NCBI GenBank assembly: GCA_049431945.1
Contig: JBMTDJ010000004.1
Span: 807-64,806, forward strand
DNA length: 64,000 nt
Origin: Candidatus Nanopelagicales bacterium
GTDB lineage: Bacteria; Actinomycetota; Actinomycetes; S36-B12
Direction: 5' to 3'
This document shows, one piece after another, positions 15,867 through 53,142 of the stretch (positions within the stretch are counted from its first letter, which is position 1; each line of letters opens with the position of its first letter). The position numbers were made by a program, and so were the translations under genes. The notes below the pieces were generated by a model. It made no database searches and was not told where the DNA came from. It was given only the letters and a program-made list of their open reading frames with translations.

Positions 15867-17441
15867 CTAGATCCAGGTCGGCATCCACATGCGCCACGTC
15901 CACTGCGTGTAGGGGATGACCTCCGCGGTCCAGACCGGGTAGAACCACCATGCCGCGACGACGACCATGAGCATGATGCCTGCCGCGACCCATGTGCCCG
16001 CCCTGCGGCGCTCCGCGCTGGCGTCCGGAGTCCCGACGAGGGCGCCGATCATCATGGCGAGCGCCATGGCGATGTACGGCAGGAATACGACCGAGTAGAA
16101 CGAGAAGATCGTCCGGTCCAGGTACAGCAGCCATGGCGCCCAGCCGGCAAGCACGGCGAGGAGGACCGCTCCGGACCGCCAGTCGCGACGGGCGATCCAT
16201 CGCCAGATGAGATAGAGCAAGGCGATCGACCCGATCCACCAGATGACCGGATTGCCCAGGGCGAGGACCTCCGCGGCACATGAGTCGGCTGTGCAACCGG
16301 ACTCGCCACCTTCCAGGCTCGACCAGTAGAACGACGTGGGCCGGGTCTGGACGAACCAACTGAGCGGATTCGACTGGTAGGAGTGGTCCCCGGTGAGCCC
16401 GACGTGGAAGTTCCACGCCTGCGAGTGGTAATTCCACAGGGCTCGCAGTGCGGCCGGTATCGGCGAGGGATCGTCGTCCGCCCACTGGCGCCCCCAGCCA
16501 CCGCTCGTGAGGAGCCAGCCGGACCAGCTCACCAGGTAGGTCACGGCCGCGGTGCCGACCATGGCGACAAAGGCGATCGGTGCGCTGCGCAGGAGTGACA
16601 CCGACCACGGCCGAGCCACGCCGAGGCGCCGGCGCAGGGAGACATCCCAGATGACGGTGAGCAGCCCGAAGGCGGCCAGGTACCACAGCCCCGACCACTT
16701 CACGGCGCAGGCGAGGCCGAGGGCCAGGCCCGCTGCCCATCGCCACGGCCGCGGCCCCAGCGCCGGACCCCACGCGTCGAGGGTGCCAGGCGGATGAGTC
16801 ACGAGGCGTTTTCGCACCTGGTCTCGGTCGATCAGCAGGCAGCCGAATGCGGCGAGCACCGTGAAGGAGAGCACCATGTCGAGCACCGCTGTCCGGCTGG
16901 TGACCAGGTGCATTCCGTCGAGTGCGACGAGTACGCCGGTGACGATGCCGACCAGGTCTGATCGTGTGAGTCGACGTGCGATGCGAGCCGCCATGAGAAT
17001 AGACAAGGTGCCAAGGACGGCTACGGCGAATCTCCAGCCGAAGGGTGTCACGCCGAAGAGCCATTCGCCGCTCGCGATGACCCACTTCCCGAAGGGTGGA
17101 TGCACGACGAACGCGGGGTCGTCCTTGAAGACGTCGATCGTGCGCCAGTTGCCGTCAGAGGCCAGGATGAGCTCGTTGGCGCTGTCGTCGAACTGTTGCT
17201 CGTGCCCATAGCGGAGCAGCGCAAGTGCGTCCTTGGCGTAGTAGACCTCGTCGAAGGCGAAAGCACTCGGGCGCCCGAGATTGACGAAGCGCAGCAGCCC
17301 TCCGACGACCATCACGGCGAGCGGCCCGATCCAGCCCCGCCATCCGAAGGAGGGCATGGGGGTCCAGCCTGACCCGGGCCAGAGCGACGGCTTGGCCGAT
17401 GTGGCCGTCGACGCTCTTGGGAGGGCGGTGGGCGCGGACAT
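15867..17441 (-). CDS. pmt: Protein O-mannosyltransferase (polyprenol-phosphate-mannose dependent, Pmt)
   Basis: 524 aa, polytopic. FAFDEVYYAKDA (the DE motif of GT-C/PMT loop 1). Same position as Rv1002c, divergent from rsmI. Confidence 0.9.
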   Translation of the reverse strand: MSAPTALPRASTATSAKPSLWPGSGWTPMPSFGWRGWIGPLAVMVVGGLLRFVNLGRPSAFAFDEVYYAKDALALLRYGHEQQFDDSANELILASDGNWRTIDVFKDDPAFVVHPPFGKWVIASGEWLFGVTPFGWRFAVAVLGTLSILMAARIARRLTRSDLVGIVTGVLVALDGMHLVTSRTAVLDMVLSFTVLAAFGCLLIDRDQVRKRLVTHPPGTLDAWGPALGPRPWRWAAGLALGLACAVKWSGLWYLAAFGLLTVIWDVSLRRRLGVARPWSVSLLRSAPIAFVAMVGTAAVTYLVSWSGWLLTSGGWGRQWADDDPSPIPAALRALWNYHSQAWNFHVGLTGDHSYQSNPLSWFVQTRPTSFYWSSLEGGESGCTADSCAAEVLALGNPVIWWIGSIALLYLIWRWIARRDWRSGAVLLAVLAGWAPWLLYLDRTIFSFYSVVFLPYIAMALAMMIGALVGTPDASAERRRAGTWVAAGIMLMVVVAAWWFYPVWTAEVIPYTQWTWRMWMPTWI

Positions 17442-17479
17442 CCGCCCATCGTAGGTTCGGACCCTGCCAGGATGGGCAG

Positions 17480-18343
17480 GTGTCCGCGCCCACCGGGGTC
17501 CTCATGATCGCCGCGACGCCCCTGGGCAACATCGGCGATGCCAGCGCGCGCCTCGTCGAGGCCCTGGCTCGCACGCCCGTCATCGCGGCGGAGGACACCC
17601 GGCGGCTGCACCGGCTCGCTCGGGATCTCGGCGTGACCTTGTCCGCCGAGGTGATCTCACTGCACGATGCAGTCGAGGAGAGCCGCACTCGCCGCGTGGT
17701 CGAACGCCTGCAGCGGGGGGAAGGGGTCCTGCTCGTGAGCGACGCCGGGATGCCCCTCATCAGCGATCCGGGCTATCGGCTCGTGCGCGCCTGCATTGAC
17801 GAGGGCATTCCCGTGACGGTGCTGCCCGGGCCGAGTGCGGTGCTCGCCGCGCTTGCCGTCTCGGGGCTCCCGGTCGATCGATTCTGCTTCGAGGGCTTCC
17901 TCCCACGCCGTGCTGGCGAACGCCGGCGCCGCATCGAGGATCTCGCTGATGAGCGCCGCACGATGGTCTTCTTCGAAGCACCGCACCGCCTGGTCGAGAC
18001 ACTCGACGCGCTGGCGTCGGGTCTCGGGCCGGAGCGTGCCGCGGCCATCTGCAGGGAAATGACCAAGACCTACGAGGAAGTACTCCGAGGATCTCTCGGC
18101 GAACTCGCTACGAGCATCCCCGAGCCGCGCGGCGAGATCACCGTTGTCGTCGCCGGAGCGACATCGACGCGAACGACGGGGGATCCGGCCGAGTGGGCGG
18201 CTGACGTAGCGAGTCTCGAGGCCGCGGGATCCGATCGCCGATCCGCGATCACCACCGTCGCACGGCGACGTGGCGTGGCGCGCAGGGAAGTCTTCGACGC
18301 GGTCGTGCAAGCCAAGGGTCGGGCGAGGGGGGACGGAAAGTAG
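17480..18343 (+). CDS. rsmI: 16S rRNA (cytidine1402-2'-O)-methyltransferase RsmI
   Basis: Track ORF 17399..18343, trimmed to GTG 17480 (VSAPTGVLMIAATPLGNIGDAS...). TPVIAAEDTR, LVSDAGMPLISDPG and FFEAPHR motifs. Confidence 0.92.
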   Translation: MSAPTGVLMIAATPLGNIGDASARLVEALARTPVIAAEDTRRLHRLARDLGVTLSAEVISLHDAVEESRTRRVVERLQRGEGVLLVSDAGMPLISDPGYRLVRACIDEGIPVTVLPGPSAVLAALAVSGLPVDRFCFEGFLPRRAGERRRRIEDLADERRTMVFFEAPHRLVETLDALASGLGPERAAAICREMTKTYEEVLRGSLGELATSIPEPRGEITVVVAGATSTRTTGDPAEWAADVASLEAAGSDRRSAITTVARRRGVARREVFDAVVQAKGRARGDGK

Positions 18344-40664: not shown

Positions 40665-41309
40665 GTGCAGTGCCGCGCCTGTCCGCGGCTCGTGCGCTGG
40701 TGCGAGCAGGTGGCGCGCGAGAGACGTGCCGCCTACCGGGACGAGGAGTACTGGGCGCGGCCGATCACCGGGTTCGGCGACCCGCGTCCGGGCGTGCTCA
40801 TCGTCGGGCTGGCGCCTGCGGCGCACGGGGCCAACCGCACGGGGCGGGTATTCACCGGCGATCGCAGCGGCGACTGGCTCTTCGCCTCGCTGCACCGCGT
40901 CGGTGCTGCCGCGCTGCCGACGTCGATCTCAGCCGATGATGGGCAGTGGCTCGACGACGTTCGCATCACGGCCGCGGTGCGCTGCGCACCACCCGGCAAT
41001 GCACCGACGCCGAAGGAGCGCGACACCTGCGCTCCGTGGCTCGTCCGCGAGATCGCGCTCACGGCGCCGCGCGTACTCGTCGCGCTCGGAGGATTCGCGT
41101 GGCAGTCCGTCCTGCGGGCACTCGCCGATCTGGGGGAGCCGTTGCCCTCACCACGACCGAAGTTCGGCCATGGTGTGTCGGCGCAGGTGCGCGACAGGTG
41201 GGTCCTGGGCTGCTACCACCCGAGTCAGCAGAACACGTTCACCGGACGGCTCACCGAGTCCATGCTCGACGAGGTCCTCGCCCGAGCCCGCGAACTCGCC
41301 GCGCCCTAG
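40665..41309 (+). CDS. udgB: Uracil-DNA glycosylase, family 5 (UdgB-like); the true start is probably upstream
   Basis: CRACPRLV.W...VA...R.A...[38 protein letters not shown]...RCAPPGN.PT..E...C.PWL and [16 protein letters not shown] match my recollection of Rv1259. The frame is open upstream, but 40665 is the first ATG/GTG/TTG. Confidence 0.85.
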
Positions 41310-41334: not shown

Positions 41335-41368
41335 GTCGCCGGGAGGGCCCGTGCCACCCGGGTAACGG

Positions 41369-41442
41369 TGCCTCCGGAGGGGATCGAACCCTCACTGGAC
41401 CGGGTTTAAGCCGGGCGTCTCTGCCAATTGGACTACGGAGGC
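41369..41442 (-). tRNA. tRNA with UAA anticodon (nominally Leu/UUA) but class-I architecture (5-nt variable loop)
   Basis: Reverse complement: GCCTCCG-TA-GTCC-AATTGGCAG-AGAC-G-CCCGG-CTTAAAC-CCGGT-CCAGT-GAGGG-TTCGATC-CCCTC-CGGAGGC-A. The acceptor stem is 7/7 paired and the T arm 5/5. GG is present in the D loop. The anticodon stem has 4 GC pairs plus C27/U43. Only CC of CCA follows. Confidence 0.8.
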
Positions 41443-41609: not shown

Positions 41610-42518
41610 ATGCAGACGGCCAACCCCGTCCTCGCCCGTATCGACCGCGACGCCGCCCAGGCCAGCCGCTCAGGGGCCGGGTTCGCCTACGAGGAGGGCC
41701 GCAGTGCGGTCGCCTCGGCCCAGTTCGGTGCCGCCGCCCCCGAGCCAACGCCGGCTCCGGCCCCCGTGCGGGGGGCGGGTGACGCGGGCATCTATACCGG
41801 CGTACAGATCCCGGCGCCAGCCGGCCAGCGGGTGACCTACGCCGACGTCATGGTCAAGTCCGCGATCCTCTTCGGCATCGCCGTCGTCATGGCATTCGCG
41901 GGCTGGACGATCACCGAAGCGATGCCCGGTGTCGGCACGCTGATCGTCTTCGGTGCGCTCATCGGCACGCTCGTCCTCGGCCTGGTCAACGCCTTCAAGC
42001 GGAAGGTCAGTCCGCCGCTCACGATTCTCTACGCCGCCGTCTCCGGCATCATGCTCGGCGCCGTGAGCTACTGGTACAACCAGCTCGCGCTCGCTTCCGA
42101 CTACGAGGGTCTGGTCCTCCAGGCGGTACTCGCGACCTTCACCACCTTCGGCGTCATGCTCCTTCTCTTCGGCACGGGCATCGTCAAGGTCACCAACAAG
42201 TTCGTGAAGTTCATGATGGTGGCGATGGTGTCGTACTTCTTCATCGCCATCGCTTCCCTCGTGGCCGCGATGTTCGGCGTGGGTGGCGGATGGGGCTTCT
42301 ACGGCGTCGGCACCCTCGGCCTGCTCCTGTGCGTCTTCGGCGTCGGCCTCGCTGCCTTCAGCCTGATGCTCGACTTCGAGGCGATCAAGCAGGGCATCGC
42401 GATGGGACTGCCCGAGCGCGAGTCGTGGCGGATGTCCTTCGGTCTGCTCGTCACGCTGGTGTGGCTCTACCTGGAGTTCCTGCGCCTCTTCGCGCTTATC
42501 GCTGCCGGTCGCGAGTAG
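41610..42518 (+). CDS. Bax inhibitor-1 / YccA family membrane protein
   Basis: Track ORF 41505..42518, trimmed to ATG 41610 with SD AGGAGGA 5 nt upstream. A soluble N-terminal ~70 aa is followed by 7 hydrophobic helices. The C-terminal block is LDFEAIKQG....WRMSFGLLVTLVWLYLEFLRL. Confidence 0.88.
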   Translation: MQTANPVLARIDRDAAQASRSGAGFAYEEGRSAVASAQFGAAAPEPTPAPAPVRGAGDAGIYTGVQIPAPAGQRVTYADVMVKSAILFGIAVVMAFAGWTITEAMPGVGTLIVFGALIGTLVLGLVNAFKRKVSPPLTILYAAVSGIMLGAVSYWYNQLALASDYEGLVLQAVLATFTTFGVMLLLFGTGIVKVTNKFVKFMMVAMVSYFFIAIASLVAAMFGVGGGWGFYGVGTLGLLLCVFGVGLAAFSLMLDFEAIKQGIAMGLPERESWRMSFGLLVTLVWLYLEFLRLFALIAAGRE

Positions 42519-51165: not shown

Positions 51166-53142
51166 TCAGGCGGAGCGGCGTCGACCCTTGCGGGATCGCA
51201 CGTAGTCGGTGACGACGTAGTCGCCGAGTCGGTCGCCGTCAGCGGCGAAGACCCGACCGCCATTGCGTCTGGCCATCGCATCGAGGAATCGGGCCAGACG
51301 CGGCTCGTCGCCAAGCCGGAACCACGAGATGGGTACTCCTCGGCGGGTGAGGCGATCGACGCCCGCGACTGTCAGCTCGACCGTCTCGCGATCGGGGGGC
51401 CAGTTGAACCACCAGTCCGGCCTCCCGAGGGGCCCGTCGACGAGGTGGGCGGTGGGCTCGCCATCGGTGACGACGAGGCAGATCCGCTCCGCGTCGCGAT
51501 GGCGGTCGAAGAATCTCTCGGCGAGCAGCAGCGCATGGTGGAGGTTTGTGCCCTGGATGTCGGAGGCGGCCAGGTCGACGAGTTCGTTCGGTTGGACCGT
51601 GCGCGCGAGGTTGGCGAAGGCGATTATCTCGATCGCATCCAGCGGGAATGCCGAACTCGCGAGGGATTGCAGTGCGAGTGCCGTCATCTTGGCGGGACGC
51701 CAGGTGTCGTTCATCACCATGGAGAACGACTGATCGACGAGAAGCGCGACCGCCGCGCGCGTGCGCGTCTCGGTCTCGCGCACCTCGAAGTCCTCGGCTG
51801 AGAGGCGCAGTCCCGAACCGGACCGGGCGGACTGGCTCTCGGACAGGGAACGGCGCACGGCATTGCCGACCGTGCGGATGACATCAAGGGGTTGCTCGTC
51901 ACCGAACTCCCACGCGCGCGTCTGGCCGGTGAGCTCGCCTGAGGCGCCGGATGCTCGTACGTCGTGATCACCCCGGGCGCCGGCCTGCATGTCGGCGAAG
52001 ACGCGACGCAAGGCTGTGCGCCCGATGCGACGGATCGCCTTGGGTGACAGTTCCATCCGCTCGGTGAGGTAGCCCTGCTCCCGCAGATCTCGCTCGATCT
52101 CGCGCAGCCGCTCGACATCGTCGACGGCGGAGCGACCGAGTGCTCGCTCGAGGGCATCGAGGTCGATGTCGTCGAGTGCGGCCCCGGCGTAGTCCTGCCC
52201 GAGCTGCTGCTCCAGCGCCTCGAGATCGGCCATCTCGGCCAGCGCCTCGGTGGCGTCGGGTAAGCCGAGCCCCGCCTCGCCGGTCATGCGCTGCCGGCCG
52301 CTCCACGGCAGATCCGGTCGTAGTGCACGCAGATGCTCCTGCAACTGCGCCATCTCGCTGGCCAGGTCGAGGTCCTGCCACGCCTGCGCCATGAGGCCGG
52401 CCAGTTCCTCGCGCTGATCTGGACTGAGCGAGTCGAGCATGCGCTGCATGGCCGCCGCCCGGCGAGCCAGATCATCGAGCAACTCCTCCAGTGTCTCGGG
52501 GGAGTCGGGGAAGAGATCGCCGTGCTTGTGCATGAACTCGGCGAAGTCCTCGGTCGTGTCCTCGCCACGGCGGTGCTTGTCGAGCATCCGGTTGAGATCG
52601 GCCATCATGTCCTTGACCGCCTGCTGCGCCGCCGGATCTCCCGGATTCTTCAGCGCCTGGGACATCTGCCGGAATTGCTGATCGAGCACATCGCGCTTGA
52701 GCAGGTCCTTGATCGCCTCGTACTCCGCGCGCGCTCCGGCCGACGTCCAGTCATAGTCGGAGAGTTCGCGGACGGCGCGCGATGTGTCCTCGGGGAGCAT
52801 GTCGAGCATCGCCTCGCGGAAGCGCGCGTCGTCGGAAGGGTCCGGGAAGAGCGCGGTGCGCTCATGCTCGACGGCGCGGTCGAGGTGCTCGCGCACCTGC
52901 TCGAGCAGGCCATCCAGTCGACCCGACTTCTGAAGTTCGCGCCGTCGTTGCGCAAGGCGCTGACGCCACTCGTCGAGGCCTCGAGCGCCGTCCATCCCGC
53001 GCCGCATGAGATCGCGCAGCGCTTCGCGCACGCTGGCGCCATCCAGCAGTCGATCGCCCAGAGCGTCGACAGCCGCACCCGCGTCGACCGGATCCGCGAG
53101 CGGGTCAGGGCCGCCGTGGAAGGCGCCGTAGCGGTAGCGCAC
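51166..53142 (-). CDS. VWA-domain protein with long acidic helical N-terminal region (Rv0959-like)
   Basis: 658 aa with a GTG start directly abutting the stop of the upstream ATPase gene. The C-terminal VWA domain has an intact MIDAS (LLVDQSFSM = DxSxS, GTN, VTDGEPT). The N-terminal ~430 aa are helical and rich in D/E/R/L. Confidence 0.88.
   Translation of the reverse strand: MRYRYGAFHGGPDPLADPVDAGAAVDALGDRLLDGASVREALRDLMRRGMDGARGLDEWRQRLAQRRRELQKSGRLDGLLEQVREHLDRAVEHERTALFPDPSDDARFREAMLDMLPEDTSRAVRELSDYDWTSAGARAEYEAIKDLLKRDVLDQQFRQMSQALKNPGDPAAQQAVKDMMADLNRMLDKHRRGEDTTEDFAEFMHKHGDLFPDSPETLEELLDDLARRAAAMQRMLDSLSPDQREELAGLMAQAWQDLDLASEMAQLQEHLRALRPDLPWSGRQRMTGEAGLGLPDATEALAEMADLEALEQQLGQDYAGAALDDIDLDALERALGRSAVDDVERLREIERDLREQGYLTERMELSPKAIRRIGRTALRRVFADMQAGARGDHDVRASGASGELTGQTRAWEFGDEQPLDVIRTVGNAVRRSLSESQSARSGSGLRLSAEDFEVRETETRTRAAVALLVDQSFSMVMNDTWRPAKMTALALQSLASSAFPLDAIEIIAFANLARTVQPNELVDLAASDIQGTNLHHALLLAERFFDRHRDAERICLVVTDGEPTAHLVDGPLGRPDWWFNWPPDRETVELTVAGVDRLTRRGVPISWFRLGDEPRLARFLDAMARRNGGRVFAADGDRLGDYVVTDYVRSRKGRRRSA

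Follow-up and report, generated by a model that had tools for sequence, protein, structure and literature searches.

A class-I tRNALeu with anticodon UAA beside BaxI in Candidatus Nanopelagicales-type actinobacteria

Introduction

A stretch of 64,000 nucleotides of actinobacterial DNA (the window) contains a tRNA gene with the leucine anticodon UAA and a variable loop of five nucleotides. Bacterial tRNALeu is commonly assumed to be a class-II tRNA, which has a long variable arm. The locus raises the question of whether this gene encodes a working tRNALeu, what the codon UUA means in this organism and its relatives, and from which gene the tRNA descends.

A sequence-only reading of the window had taken every bacterial tRNALeu to be class II. 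This common assumption needs correcting. A natural type-I tRNALeu(CAA) of Streptomyces coelicolor has the five-nucleotide variable loop A44-C45-A46-G47-C48 (Fan, Huang, Ji & Wang 2019, NAR 47:6369; PMC6614811), and short tRNA-Leu genes with anticodons CAA, UAA and UAG are present on actinobacterial plasmids and phages. S. coelicolor also has four class-II tRNALeu isoacceptors, among them bldA (UAA), and its single LeuRS (ScoLeuRS) charges both types, with kcat/Km values of 6.25 s−1 μM−1 for the type-I tRNALeu(CAA) and 14.2 s−1 μM−1 for the bldA tRNA (PMC6614811). The minimum for efficient leucylation is a five-nucleotide loop that includes nucleotide 48; loop length and U8:A14 are critical for type-I charging, C74 matters, and A73 does not (PMC6614811). 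Type-I charging is conferred by LeuRS's leucine-specific domain (LSD), with L732/G733 beside KMSKS in ScoLeuRS (PMC6614811). A bldA tRNA without its variable stem can still be charged in vitro, and ScoLeuRS does not charge human mt-tRNALeu(UUR) (PMC6614811). SpurLeuRS is unable to charge type-I tRNA. The remark in the sequence-only reading that the variable arm is dispensable for LeuRS thus agrees with published biochemistry.

As cited in PMC6614811, Pettersson and Kirsebom (2011, Mol Microbiol 79:1602) found that tRNALeu(CAA) takes the place of bldA in vivo once its anticodon is UAA. On that citation, the kind of molecule seen here has an experimental precedent, since an engineered class-I leucine body with UAA did the work of bldA. 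The type-I tRNALeu case goes unmentioned in a 2023 review of tRNA identity, and our literature search returned no paper combining "Nanopelagicales" and "tRNA-Leu". The type-I tRNALeu of actinobacteria is already known; the gene described here departs from it in anticodon, locus and lineage-wide fixation.

Results and Discussion

The tRNA gene in the window

The gene and its diagnostic parts are as follows.

41369..41442, minus strand: class-I (type-I) tRNALeu(UAA) gene, 74 nt (ARAGORN, Rfam RF00005, class-I CAA model, covariation)
41406..41408, minus strand: anticodon U34 A35 A36 (5'-UAA-3'), direct sequence
41394..41398, minus strand: five-nucleotide variable loop C44 C45 A46 G47 U48, direct sequence
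41367..41368, minus strand: encoded C74 C75 (sequence and ARAGORN)

Among the four tRNA-like genes that ARAGORN detects in the window is a tRNA-Leu(taa), on the minus strand at 41367-41442. The Rfam model RF00005 is spanned in full by 41369-41442 on the same strand, with a score of 53.0 bits (E=1.5e-8) and a gathering score of 29. Numbering is the standard 1-73 with one additional D-loop nucleotide. The 5' half reads GCCUCCG-UA-GUCC-AAUUGGCAG-AGAC-G-CCCGG-CUUAAAC and the 3' half CCGGU-CCAGU-GAGGG-UUCGAUC-CCCUC-CGGAGGC-A, followed by CC and then G. Since this next base is G, A76 is absent from the gene and the CCA end must be completed post-transcriptionally; the full CCA is encoded in the tRNA genes of some relatives.

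The acceptor stem has seven Watson-Crick pairs out of seven. The T arm is GAGGG/CCCUC with the loop UUCGAUC, the anticodon loop is C-U-UAA-A-C, and G18G19 and the discriminator A73 are present. The only non-canonical pairs are C13.A22 and C27.U43, both flagged in the Rfam match. All structural claims of the sequence-only reading were confirmed by ARAGORN, RF00005 and the sequence itself. The features of a leucine tRNA that are retained include U8:A14, A15..U48, G18G19 within the D loop AAYYGGCAG, A73 and C74; U8:A14, G18G19, A73 and C74 are invariant across the alignment of class-I UAA genes. The anticodon reads UUA and, depending on the modification of U34, UUG as well.

Single-sequence thermodynamic folding gave an unremarkable z of −1.55, and the cloverleaf is not the minimum-energy structure, a result that we set aside in view of the covariation described below. 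A scan for a consensus promoter and terminator around the gene yielded nothing useful, and neither did a search for inverted repeats flanking it. The GC content of the window is 64-71% throughout, with no anomaly near the tRNA gene.

Conservation of the locus

The tRNA gene lies between two protein-coding genes, which had been named as udgB and BI-1 on first reading and are confirmed as such by their Pfam matches.

40665..41309, plus strand: uracil-DNA glycosylase (UDG) family gene, the syntenic anchor 3' of the tRNA (Pfam PF03167, E=6e-27)
41610..42518, plus strand: BaxI_1 (Bax inhibitor-1/YccA-like), divergent from the tRNA and the anchor for orthologous loci (Pfam PF12811, E=1.4e-69)

The order UDG/tRNA/BaxI is the same in six loci (L001-L006). 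Close homologues of the BaxI protein number in the hundreds in metagenomes, freshwater and other, and the few with a label are MAGs of "Actinomycetota" or "Candidatus Nanopelagicales". A short tRNA(UAA) lies just upstream of BaxI in orthologous contigs whose BaxI proteins are 91%, 71% and 66% identical to that of the window.

Genomes were scanned by BaxI alignment with one genome per GTDB species, which gave 80 loci. Their labels are mostly Ca. Nanopelagicales or Actinomycetota/Actinomycetes MAGs, and the GC content of the loci ranges from 52 to 74%. In 72 of the 80, ARAGORN detected a tRNA whose anticodon is UAA, mostly within about 250 bp upstream of BaxI, and the anticodon is TAA in all 72 of these BaxI-linked tRNAs. 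In 68 loci the tRNA is class I, with a length of 74-77 nt. Four loci (L047, L075, L084 and L086) carry a canonical class-II tRNALeu(UAA) of 84-86 nt in the same position beside BaxI; these are outgroup MAGs, one labelled Micrococcales and one Ca. Nanopelagicales. No tRNA(UAA) was detected in the remaining eight, most of which end close to BaxI. The sequence-only reading had listed, among the findings that would refute it, that class-I Leu(UAA) tRNAs prove to be routine in this clade already. At 68 of 80 species-level loci, this is largely the case. Class I prevails at the BaxI site in a large lineage that consists mostly of uncultured Ca. Nanopelagicales MAGs, many of them from lakes and rivers.

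The variable loop has five nucleotides in 35 of 36 distinct class-I UAA sequences and is ACAGU in most relatives. Pairing in the cloverleaf amounts to 91.9% over 33 distinct class-I sequences, and both sides vary in 13 of the 21 stem pairs, which is the pattern of compensatory change that a comparison of the udgB/BI-1 region had been proposed to look for. None of 500 column shuffles matched the observed covariation, and sliding the 3' partners abolished the signal. Pair 27:43, which is C27.U43 in the window, is G.U, A-U or C-G in relatives. The C13.A22 mismatch is invariant among the class-I sequences compared. The class-II tRNALeu genes recovered here have a counterpart in G13.A22, so the mismatch looks like a feature of the family rather than damage. 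The tRNA gene of the window is real and under structural selection.

The meaning of UUA

We assembled 23 ortholog families from 88 syntenic loci, keeping ORFs conserved in at least five loci and dropping overlapping shadow ORFs. Each codon was then scored by the majority amino acid at well-occupied conserved columns, with sequences sharing that codon excluded. TTA falls on leucine-majority columns in 227 of 247 cases (92%). The corresponding shares are 92% for TTG, 90% for CTA, 89% for CTT, 84% for CTC and 85% for CTG. Valine (7), phenylalanine (5) and tyrosine (4) lead the non-leucine TTA columns, and no amino acid besides leucine exceeds 3%. Of the 247 TTA codons, 246 are found outside the four class-II loci. 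Since TTA sits on leucine columns as often as TTG does, UUA is read as leucine in the clade and recoding or programmed mistranslation is rejected. The genetic code is unchanged, and the tRNA has no consequence for it.

Within the window, codons were counted in 45 stop-to-stop ORFs that passed a GC1>GC2 filter (16,449 codons). TTA is the rarest codon, with three occurrences. In our judgement two of the three are upstream of the true start codon; the TTA in the BaxI reading frame overlaps the tRNA gene on the opposite strand. With two of the three upstream of a start, a single credible in-frame TTA remains, about 1 in 16,000 codons.

52261..52263, minus strand: the only credible in-frame TTA of the window, within a protein of 658 aa that matches VWA_2 weakly, in the context G-L-G-L(TTA)-P-D

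The local avoidance of UUA that had been noticed from spot checks is thus real. It is not special to this tRNA. The frequency of TTA per 1000 codons is 5.8 in loci below 57% GC, 1.0 at 57-65% and 0.19 above 65%, and the same class-I tRNA is present in all three groups; the rate of 5.8 is that of relatives with 52-56% GC, and lower-GC relatives have TTA in housekeeping genes. Because the rarity of TTA tracks GC content, it reflects ordinary GC bias.

Homology of the tRNA body

Backbone identity was computed without the anticodon arm and the variable region. On this measure the window tRNA shares 76-82% of its positions with class-I tRNALeu(CAA) genes and 59-63% with the class-II tRNALeu(UAA) genes at the BaxI locus. 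Taken over every class-I UAA sequence in the comparison, these values span 76-96% and 53-75%, respectively. Class-II bodies are 82-94% identical to each other regardless of their anticodon. The two classes differ at three places.

Acceptor stem: class I GCCCCCG/CGGGGGC; class II GCCCGGA/UCCGGGC
Positions 8-9: class I U8-A9; class II U8-G9
D stem: class I G(U/C)CC..AG(A/G)C; class II GCGG..ACGC

A covariance model built from 20 class-I CAA genes alone served as a stand-in for an isotype-specific model. It scores the window tRNA(UAA) at 84.9 bits, compared with about 96 for its own training members and 61-86 for most class-I leucine genes of phage, plasmid and metagenomic arrays. The class-II Leu(UAA) genes at the BaxI locus reach 45-57 bits, the top non-leucine tRNA in the searched loci 58, and the tRNA-Gln and tRNA-Ala of the window 41.8 and 36.0. 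The D loop and A73 had been called leucine-like despite the short arm, and both are among the leucine-type features retained in the gene. The body of the window tRNA is homologous to class-I tRNALeu(CAA) and unlike the class-II bldA type. A short tRNA with a leucine anticodon should not be counted as suspect by annotation and isotype pipelines when it is found in actinobacteria.

A blastn search of the 74-nt tRNA against annotated plasmids and phages matched short tRNA genes exclusively. All phage matches are annotated as tRNA-Leu; the plasmid matches are unannotated there and are called tRNA-Leu by ARAGORN. A tRNA-Leu(CAA) on "plasmid 5" of Tsukamurella tyrosinosolvens, adjoined by an integrase, is 76% identical over the full length. 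The tRNA array of Mycolicibacterium pTY66_01 includes a class-I Leu(UAA), and phages of Streptomyces, Gordonia and Mycobacterium gave matches to Leu(UAG) or Leu(UAA) genes of 74-77 nt. The UAA copy of the plasmid array is 73% identical to the window tRNA, slightly less than the PdtaR-linked CAA genes described below (76-82%).

When metagenomes were scanned for this D arm combined with anticodon CAA, 74 contigs matched, about 27 of them single-tRNA and high-GC. A PdtaR-type gene (Response_reg+ANTAR) adjoins the class-I CAA tRNA in at least 18 contigs, mostly of this single-tRNA, high-GC kind. The remaining contigs hold arrays of 5-31 tRNAs in which class-I leucine genes occur with every leucine anticodon. 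The class-I CAA genes were never found beside BaxI or UDG, and PdtaR is absent from the 64-kb window and from loci L001-L087. In a separate protein search, PdtaR gave 120 matches at 83-99% identity, of which one carries a label, Micromonosporaceae.

Origin of the gene

We conclude, with a probability of roughly 0.8, that the gene is a functional actinobacterial type-I tRNALeu(UAA) which is charged by LeuRS and decodes UUA, and which is likely an anticodon-shifted class-I gene. The first of the earlier readings, a UUA-decoding leucine tRNA with an unusual body, was essentially right: the codon falls on leucine at 92% of its columns and the body is of the class-I leucine type. By analogy with the S. 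coelicolor biochemistry, the tRNA would be charged with leucine by the ordinary LeuRS of the cell. It would decode UUA and probably, by wobble, UUG.

The site is that of the UAA isoacceptor and the body is that of a CAA-type class-I tRNA, so an anticodon shift followed by replacement is the simplest account. A copy of a class-I tRNALeu gene may have undergone a single C34-to-U34 transition (an isoacceptor anticodon shift), and the shifted copy could then have taken over the BaxI-side site of the class-II tRNALeu(UAA), perhaps by gene conversion. To have a CAA-type gene at the exact locus of the old UAA gene, gene conversion or replacement is required. We infer the direction and mechanism of this replacement; the promoter, terminator and inverted-repeat scans at the BaxI locus found no molecular trace of it.

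In a neighbour-joining tree of BaxI, all tRNA-bearing loci of a large clade that includes the window are of one type, Ia, with the D arm GUAGUCCAA..., and this uniformity fits vertical inheritance after one event. Type Ib class-I tRNAs, with the D arm GUAGCCCAA..., are closest to the Tsukamurella CAA gene; among the outgroups of the tree they occur interspersed with the four class-II loci. The orientation of the tRNA relative to BaxI flips several times.

The window tRNA is most likely the UUA decoder of its genome, and synteny and parsimony suggest that it may be the sole decoder of UUA (or UUR). A broader proposal is that the whole clade switched class, a CAA-derived class-I gene with the C34-to-U34 change having replaced the class-II bldA-type gene on site to become the only reader of UUA and UUG. 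We put this forward tentatively, at rather less than even odds. Should the tRNA prove to be the sole UUR reader, the clade would offer a natural experiment in how tRNAs switch class and how LeuRS co-evolves with its tRNA. A clade-wide switch, if true, predicts a matching adaptation of the leucine-specific domain of LeuRS, and it would provide a natural system in which to ask why the class-II architecture persists elsewhere.

Alternative explanations

Two alternatives agree that the gene is a working tRNALeu and differ on its descent. The short tRNA could have arisen in situ, the class-II bldA-type tRNALeu(UAA) beside BaxI having lost its arm by deletion and converged on class-I CAA. Class-I and class-II tRNA(UAA) genes do occupy the same BaxI-adjacent site, class-I CAA genes are never found there, and a bldA tRNA with its variable stem deleted is chargeable in vitro (PMC6614811). 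However, even outside the variable region the acceptor stem, position 9 (A instead of G) and the D stem set the class-I UAA genes apart from the class-II genes of the locus, and in all of these they match CAA genes. Their identity to class-I CAA (76-96%) against class II (53-75%) argues in the same direction, as do the similar variable loops, NCAGU in UAA genes and CCAGU or ACAGC in CAA genes. We regard arm deletion as unlikely. Alternatively, a class-I tRNALeu(UAA) from a phage or plasmid may have landed at this site and taken the place of the host gene. Arrays commonly hold class-I tRNA-Leu genes with UAA, UAG, CAG, GAG and CAA (pTY66_01, Sixama, JXY1, and metagenomic arrays of 5-31 tRNAs), and the repeated flips of orientation across the tree likewise count in favour of this route. 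Yet no integrase, repeats or other signs of a mobile element flank the gene, the GC content around it is unremarkable, and the window tRNA is nearer to the PdtaR-linked CAA genes than to the plasmid UAA copy. The uniform type Ia of the large BaxI clade also fits vertical inheritance after a single event. This route seems about as improbable as arm deletion in absolute terms, or slightly more so. Compared with the anticodon shift, in-situ arm deletion is much less likely and mobile capture somewhat less likely.

The other two alternatives deny that the gene is an ordinary tRNALeu. Its identity might differ from its anticodon, so that another amino acid is charged and UUA is recoded or mistranslated, as the earlier reading had also considered. 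The body is unusual, and the anticodon is not read by LeuRS, SerRS or AlaRS. Streptomyces does have tRNAs that mistranslate deliberately. Against this, TTA lies on leucine at 92% of the 247 columns, like the other leucine codons, and a second amino acid accounts for at most 3%. The tRNA has neither the G3:U70 mark of alanine nor the long arm that marks serine, and its body is of a known leucine-accepting type. A changed identity is very improbable. Still less weight goes to the idea that the gene is a decaying or silent copy. It could appeal to the two non-canonical pairs, the incompletely encoded CCA, the lack of a consensus promoter or terminator in our scan and the unremarkable folding energy. 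But the anticodon, the nucleotides of tertiary interactions and C13.A22 are invariant in 68 species-level genomes of 52-74% GC, compensatory changes affect 13 of 21 stem pairs, C13.A22 has its parallel in the class-II G13.A22, and the gene is also present in relatives with 5.8 TTA per 1000 codons. We discard the suggestion of a pseudogene.

Relation to known systems

The closest described relative is the type-I tRNALeu(CAA) of S. coelicolor. Both are actinobacterial chromosomal genes with a five-nucleotide variable loop (ACAGC there, CCAGU in the window, ACAGU in the relatives), and both have U8:A14, G18G19, A73 and C74. The S. coelicolor tRNA was compared by its variable loop; body homology was measured on the Tsukamurella and metagenomic class-I CAA genes. 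The window tRNA differs in its anticodon UAA and in its lineage of Ca. Nanopelagicales-type MAGs. Described and metagenomic class-I CAA genes adjoin PdtaR, whereas the window tRNA adjoins BaxI and UDG. The sole biochemically studied case, the S. coelicolor tRNALeu(CAA), is here extended to the UAA isoacceptor and to a large lineage of mostly Ca. Nanopelagicales MAGs.

With bldA, the class-II tRNALeu(UAA) of Streptomyces, the window tRNA has in common the anticodon, the codon and the setting, UUA being the rarest codon at about 68% GC as it is in Streptomyces. Unlike bldA it has a class-I body, with different acceptor and D stems, a five-nucleotide loop and no long arm. Lower-GC relatives use the same tRNA for a commonly used codon, so the rarity of UUA is not intrinsic to it. 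The engineered tRNALeu(CAA) with a UAA anticodon, as cited in PMC6614811, amounts to the same molecule in essence: UAA on a class-I tRNALeu body, reported to decode UUA as leucine in vivo. That tRNA was made in the laboratory; the window tRNA occurs naturally, has become fixed in a large clade and sits at a UAA-gene locus.

Outside bacteria, the replacement of one mitochondrial tRNALeu isoacceptor by another through duplication and anticodon change is documented as "remolding". Animal mitochondrial tRNALeu(UUR) is likewise a class-I tRNALeu with anticodon UAA (PMC6614811). It belongs to a separate genetic system with a dedicated mitochondrial LeuRS, and no homology is implied.

Many tRNA arrays of phages and plasmids contain the class-I leucine body, which occurs there with all leucine anticodons. 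Gordonia phage Sixama (Leu(taa) and Leu(tag)), Streptomyces phage JXY1, Mycobacterium phage CELFI and pTY66_01 carry short tRNA-Leu genes of 74-78 nt, some with UAA, which have D-arm and variable-loop signatures in common with the window tRNA; most of them score 52-86 bits with the class-I leucine model. These arrays are mobile, hold many tRNAs and are more divergent, whereas the window gene is single and chromosomal and lies in conserved synteny. Among the metagenomic contigs with a class-I CAA tRNA, those of the L164 type resemble phage genomes of about 250-300 kb.

Both classes of tRNALeu in one genome

The class-I tRNALeu, with its short variable loop, and the usual class-II form are found together on a metagenomic contig (L104, 69% GC), where the two genes are separated by approximately 475 bp:

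L104:436-521, class-II tRNALeu(CAA), 86 nt
L104:996-1070, class-I tRNALeu(CAA), 75 nt

A single genome can therefore hold class-I and class-II tRNALeu of identical anticodon (CAA). The pair adjoins a gene for a LivJ-like periplasmic binding protein. The pairing also applies to L157 and L112.

Class-I tRNALeu in mobile elements and chromosomes

Large tRNA arrays, with up to 31 tRNAs per 14 kb and GC contents from 30% to 68%, hold class-I tRNALeu genes with CAA, UAA, UAG, CAG, and GAG anticodons (L099, L107, L118, L151, L111, and other array loci). Four contigs of around 240-306 kb (L121, L155, L162, and L164; approximately 50% GC) encode mostly hypothetical proteins, and in these the class-I tRNALeu(CAA) adjoins a tRNA-Ile(UAU). 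They look like jumbo phages. From the arrays and these phage-like contigs, we conclude that the class-I Leu body is widely distributed in mobile elements, reaching far past the high-GC actinobacteria.

On chromosomes, the class-I tRNALeu(CAA) gene is accompanied by a conserved neighbor, a PdtaR-type response regulator (Response_reg and ANTAR domains), observed at L149, L153, L160, L166, L110, L152, and no fewer than 12 other metagenomic loci. The regulator gene could act as an anchor to locate the tRNALeu(CAA) gene in the genome of any actinobacterium.

Variation at the BaxI locus

The orientation of the tRNA relative to BaxI switches several times between 'opposite' and 'same' on the BaxI tree (L001-L087). 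'Opposite' is the state of the window's subclade; in L022, L027, L029, and L031 the tRNA is flipped inside a clade that is otherwise 'opposite'. Two relatives (L005 and L006) show a two-gene insertion (ACT-domain protein and peptide deformylase) between the uracil-DNA glycosylase gene and the tRNA. No inverted repeats flanking the tRNA gene were seen in the window. One member of the class-Ia BaxI clade is a complete chromosome:

OZ257127.1, 2382903-2395727 (L071), BaxI locus on a 3.68-Mb chromosome

As no tRNA was found within 6 kb of BaxI here, the tRNA(UAA) has been moved or lost.

Pair 4:69 of the acceptor stem is U4-A69 in the window tRNA and C4-G69 in other relatives. It is mismatched in a close relative (BaxI 91% identical):

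L001:9796-9872, minus strand, class-I tRNA

Its acceptor stem, GCCCCCG/CGGAGGC, has a C4·A69 mismatch, which looks like an intermediate between the other two states.

Probably spurious tRNA calls

Two ARAGORN predictions are doubtful:

Window 17388-17475, plus strand, 'tRNA-???', 88 nt, two-base anticodon 'gg'
L076:4249-4340, plus strand, 'tRNA-Val(gac)', 92 nt, at a BaxI-linked locus of 72% GC

Rfam gives the former no hit that reaches the gathering threshold, so it is almost certainly a false positive. It lies in the divergent region where two ORFs overlap at their N-terminal ends:

Window 15867-17501, minus strand, PMT-family mannosyltransferase
Window 17285-18343, plus strand, TP_methylase

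The L076 call is probably also false, since its sequence resembles coding DNA.
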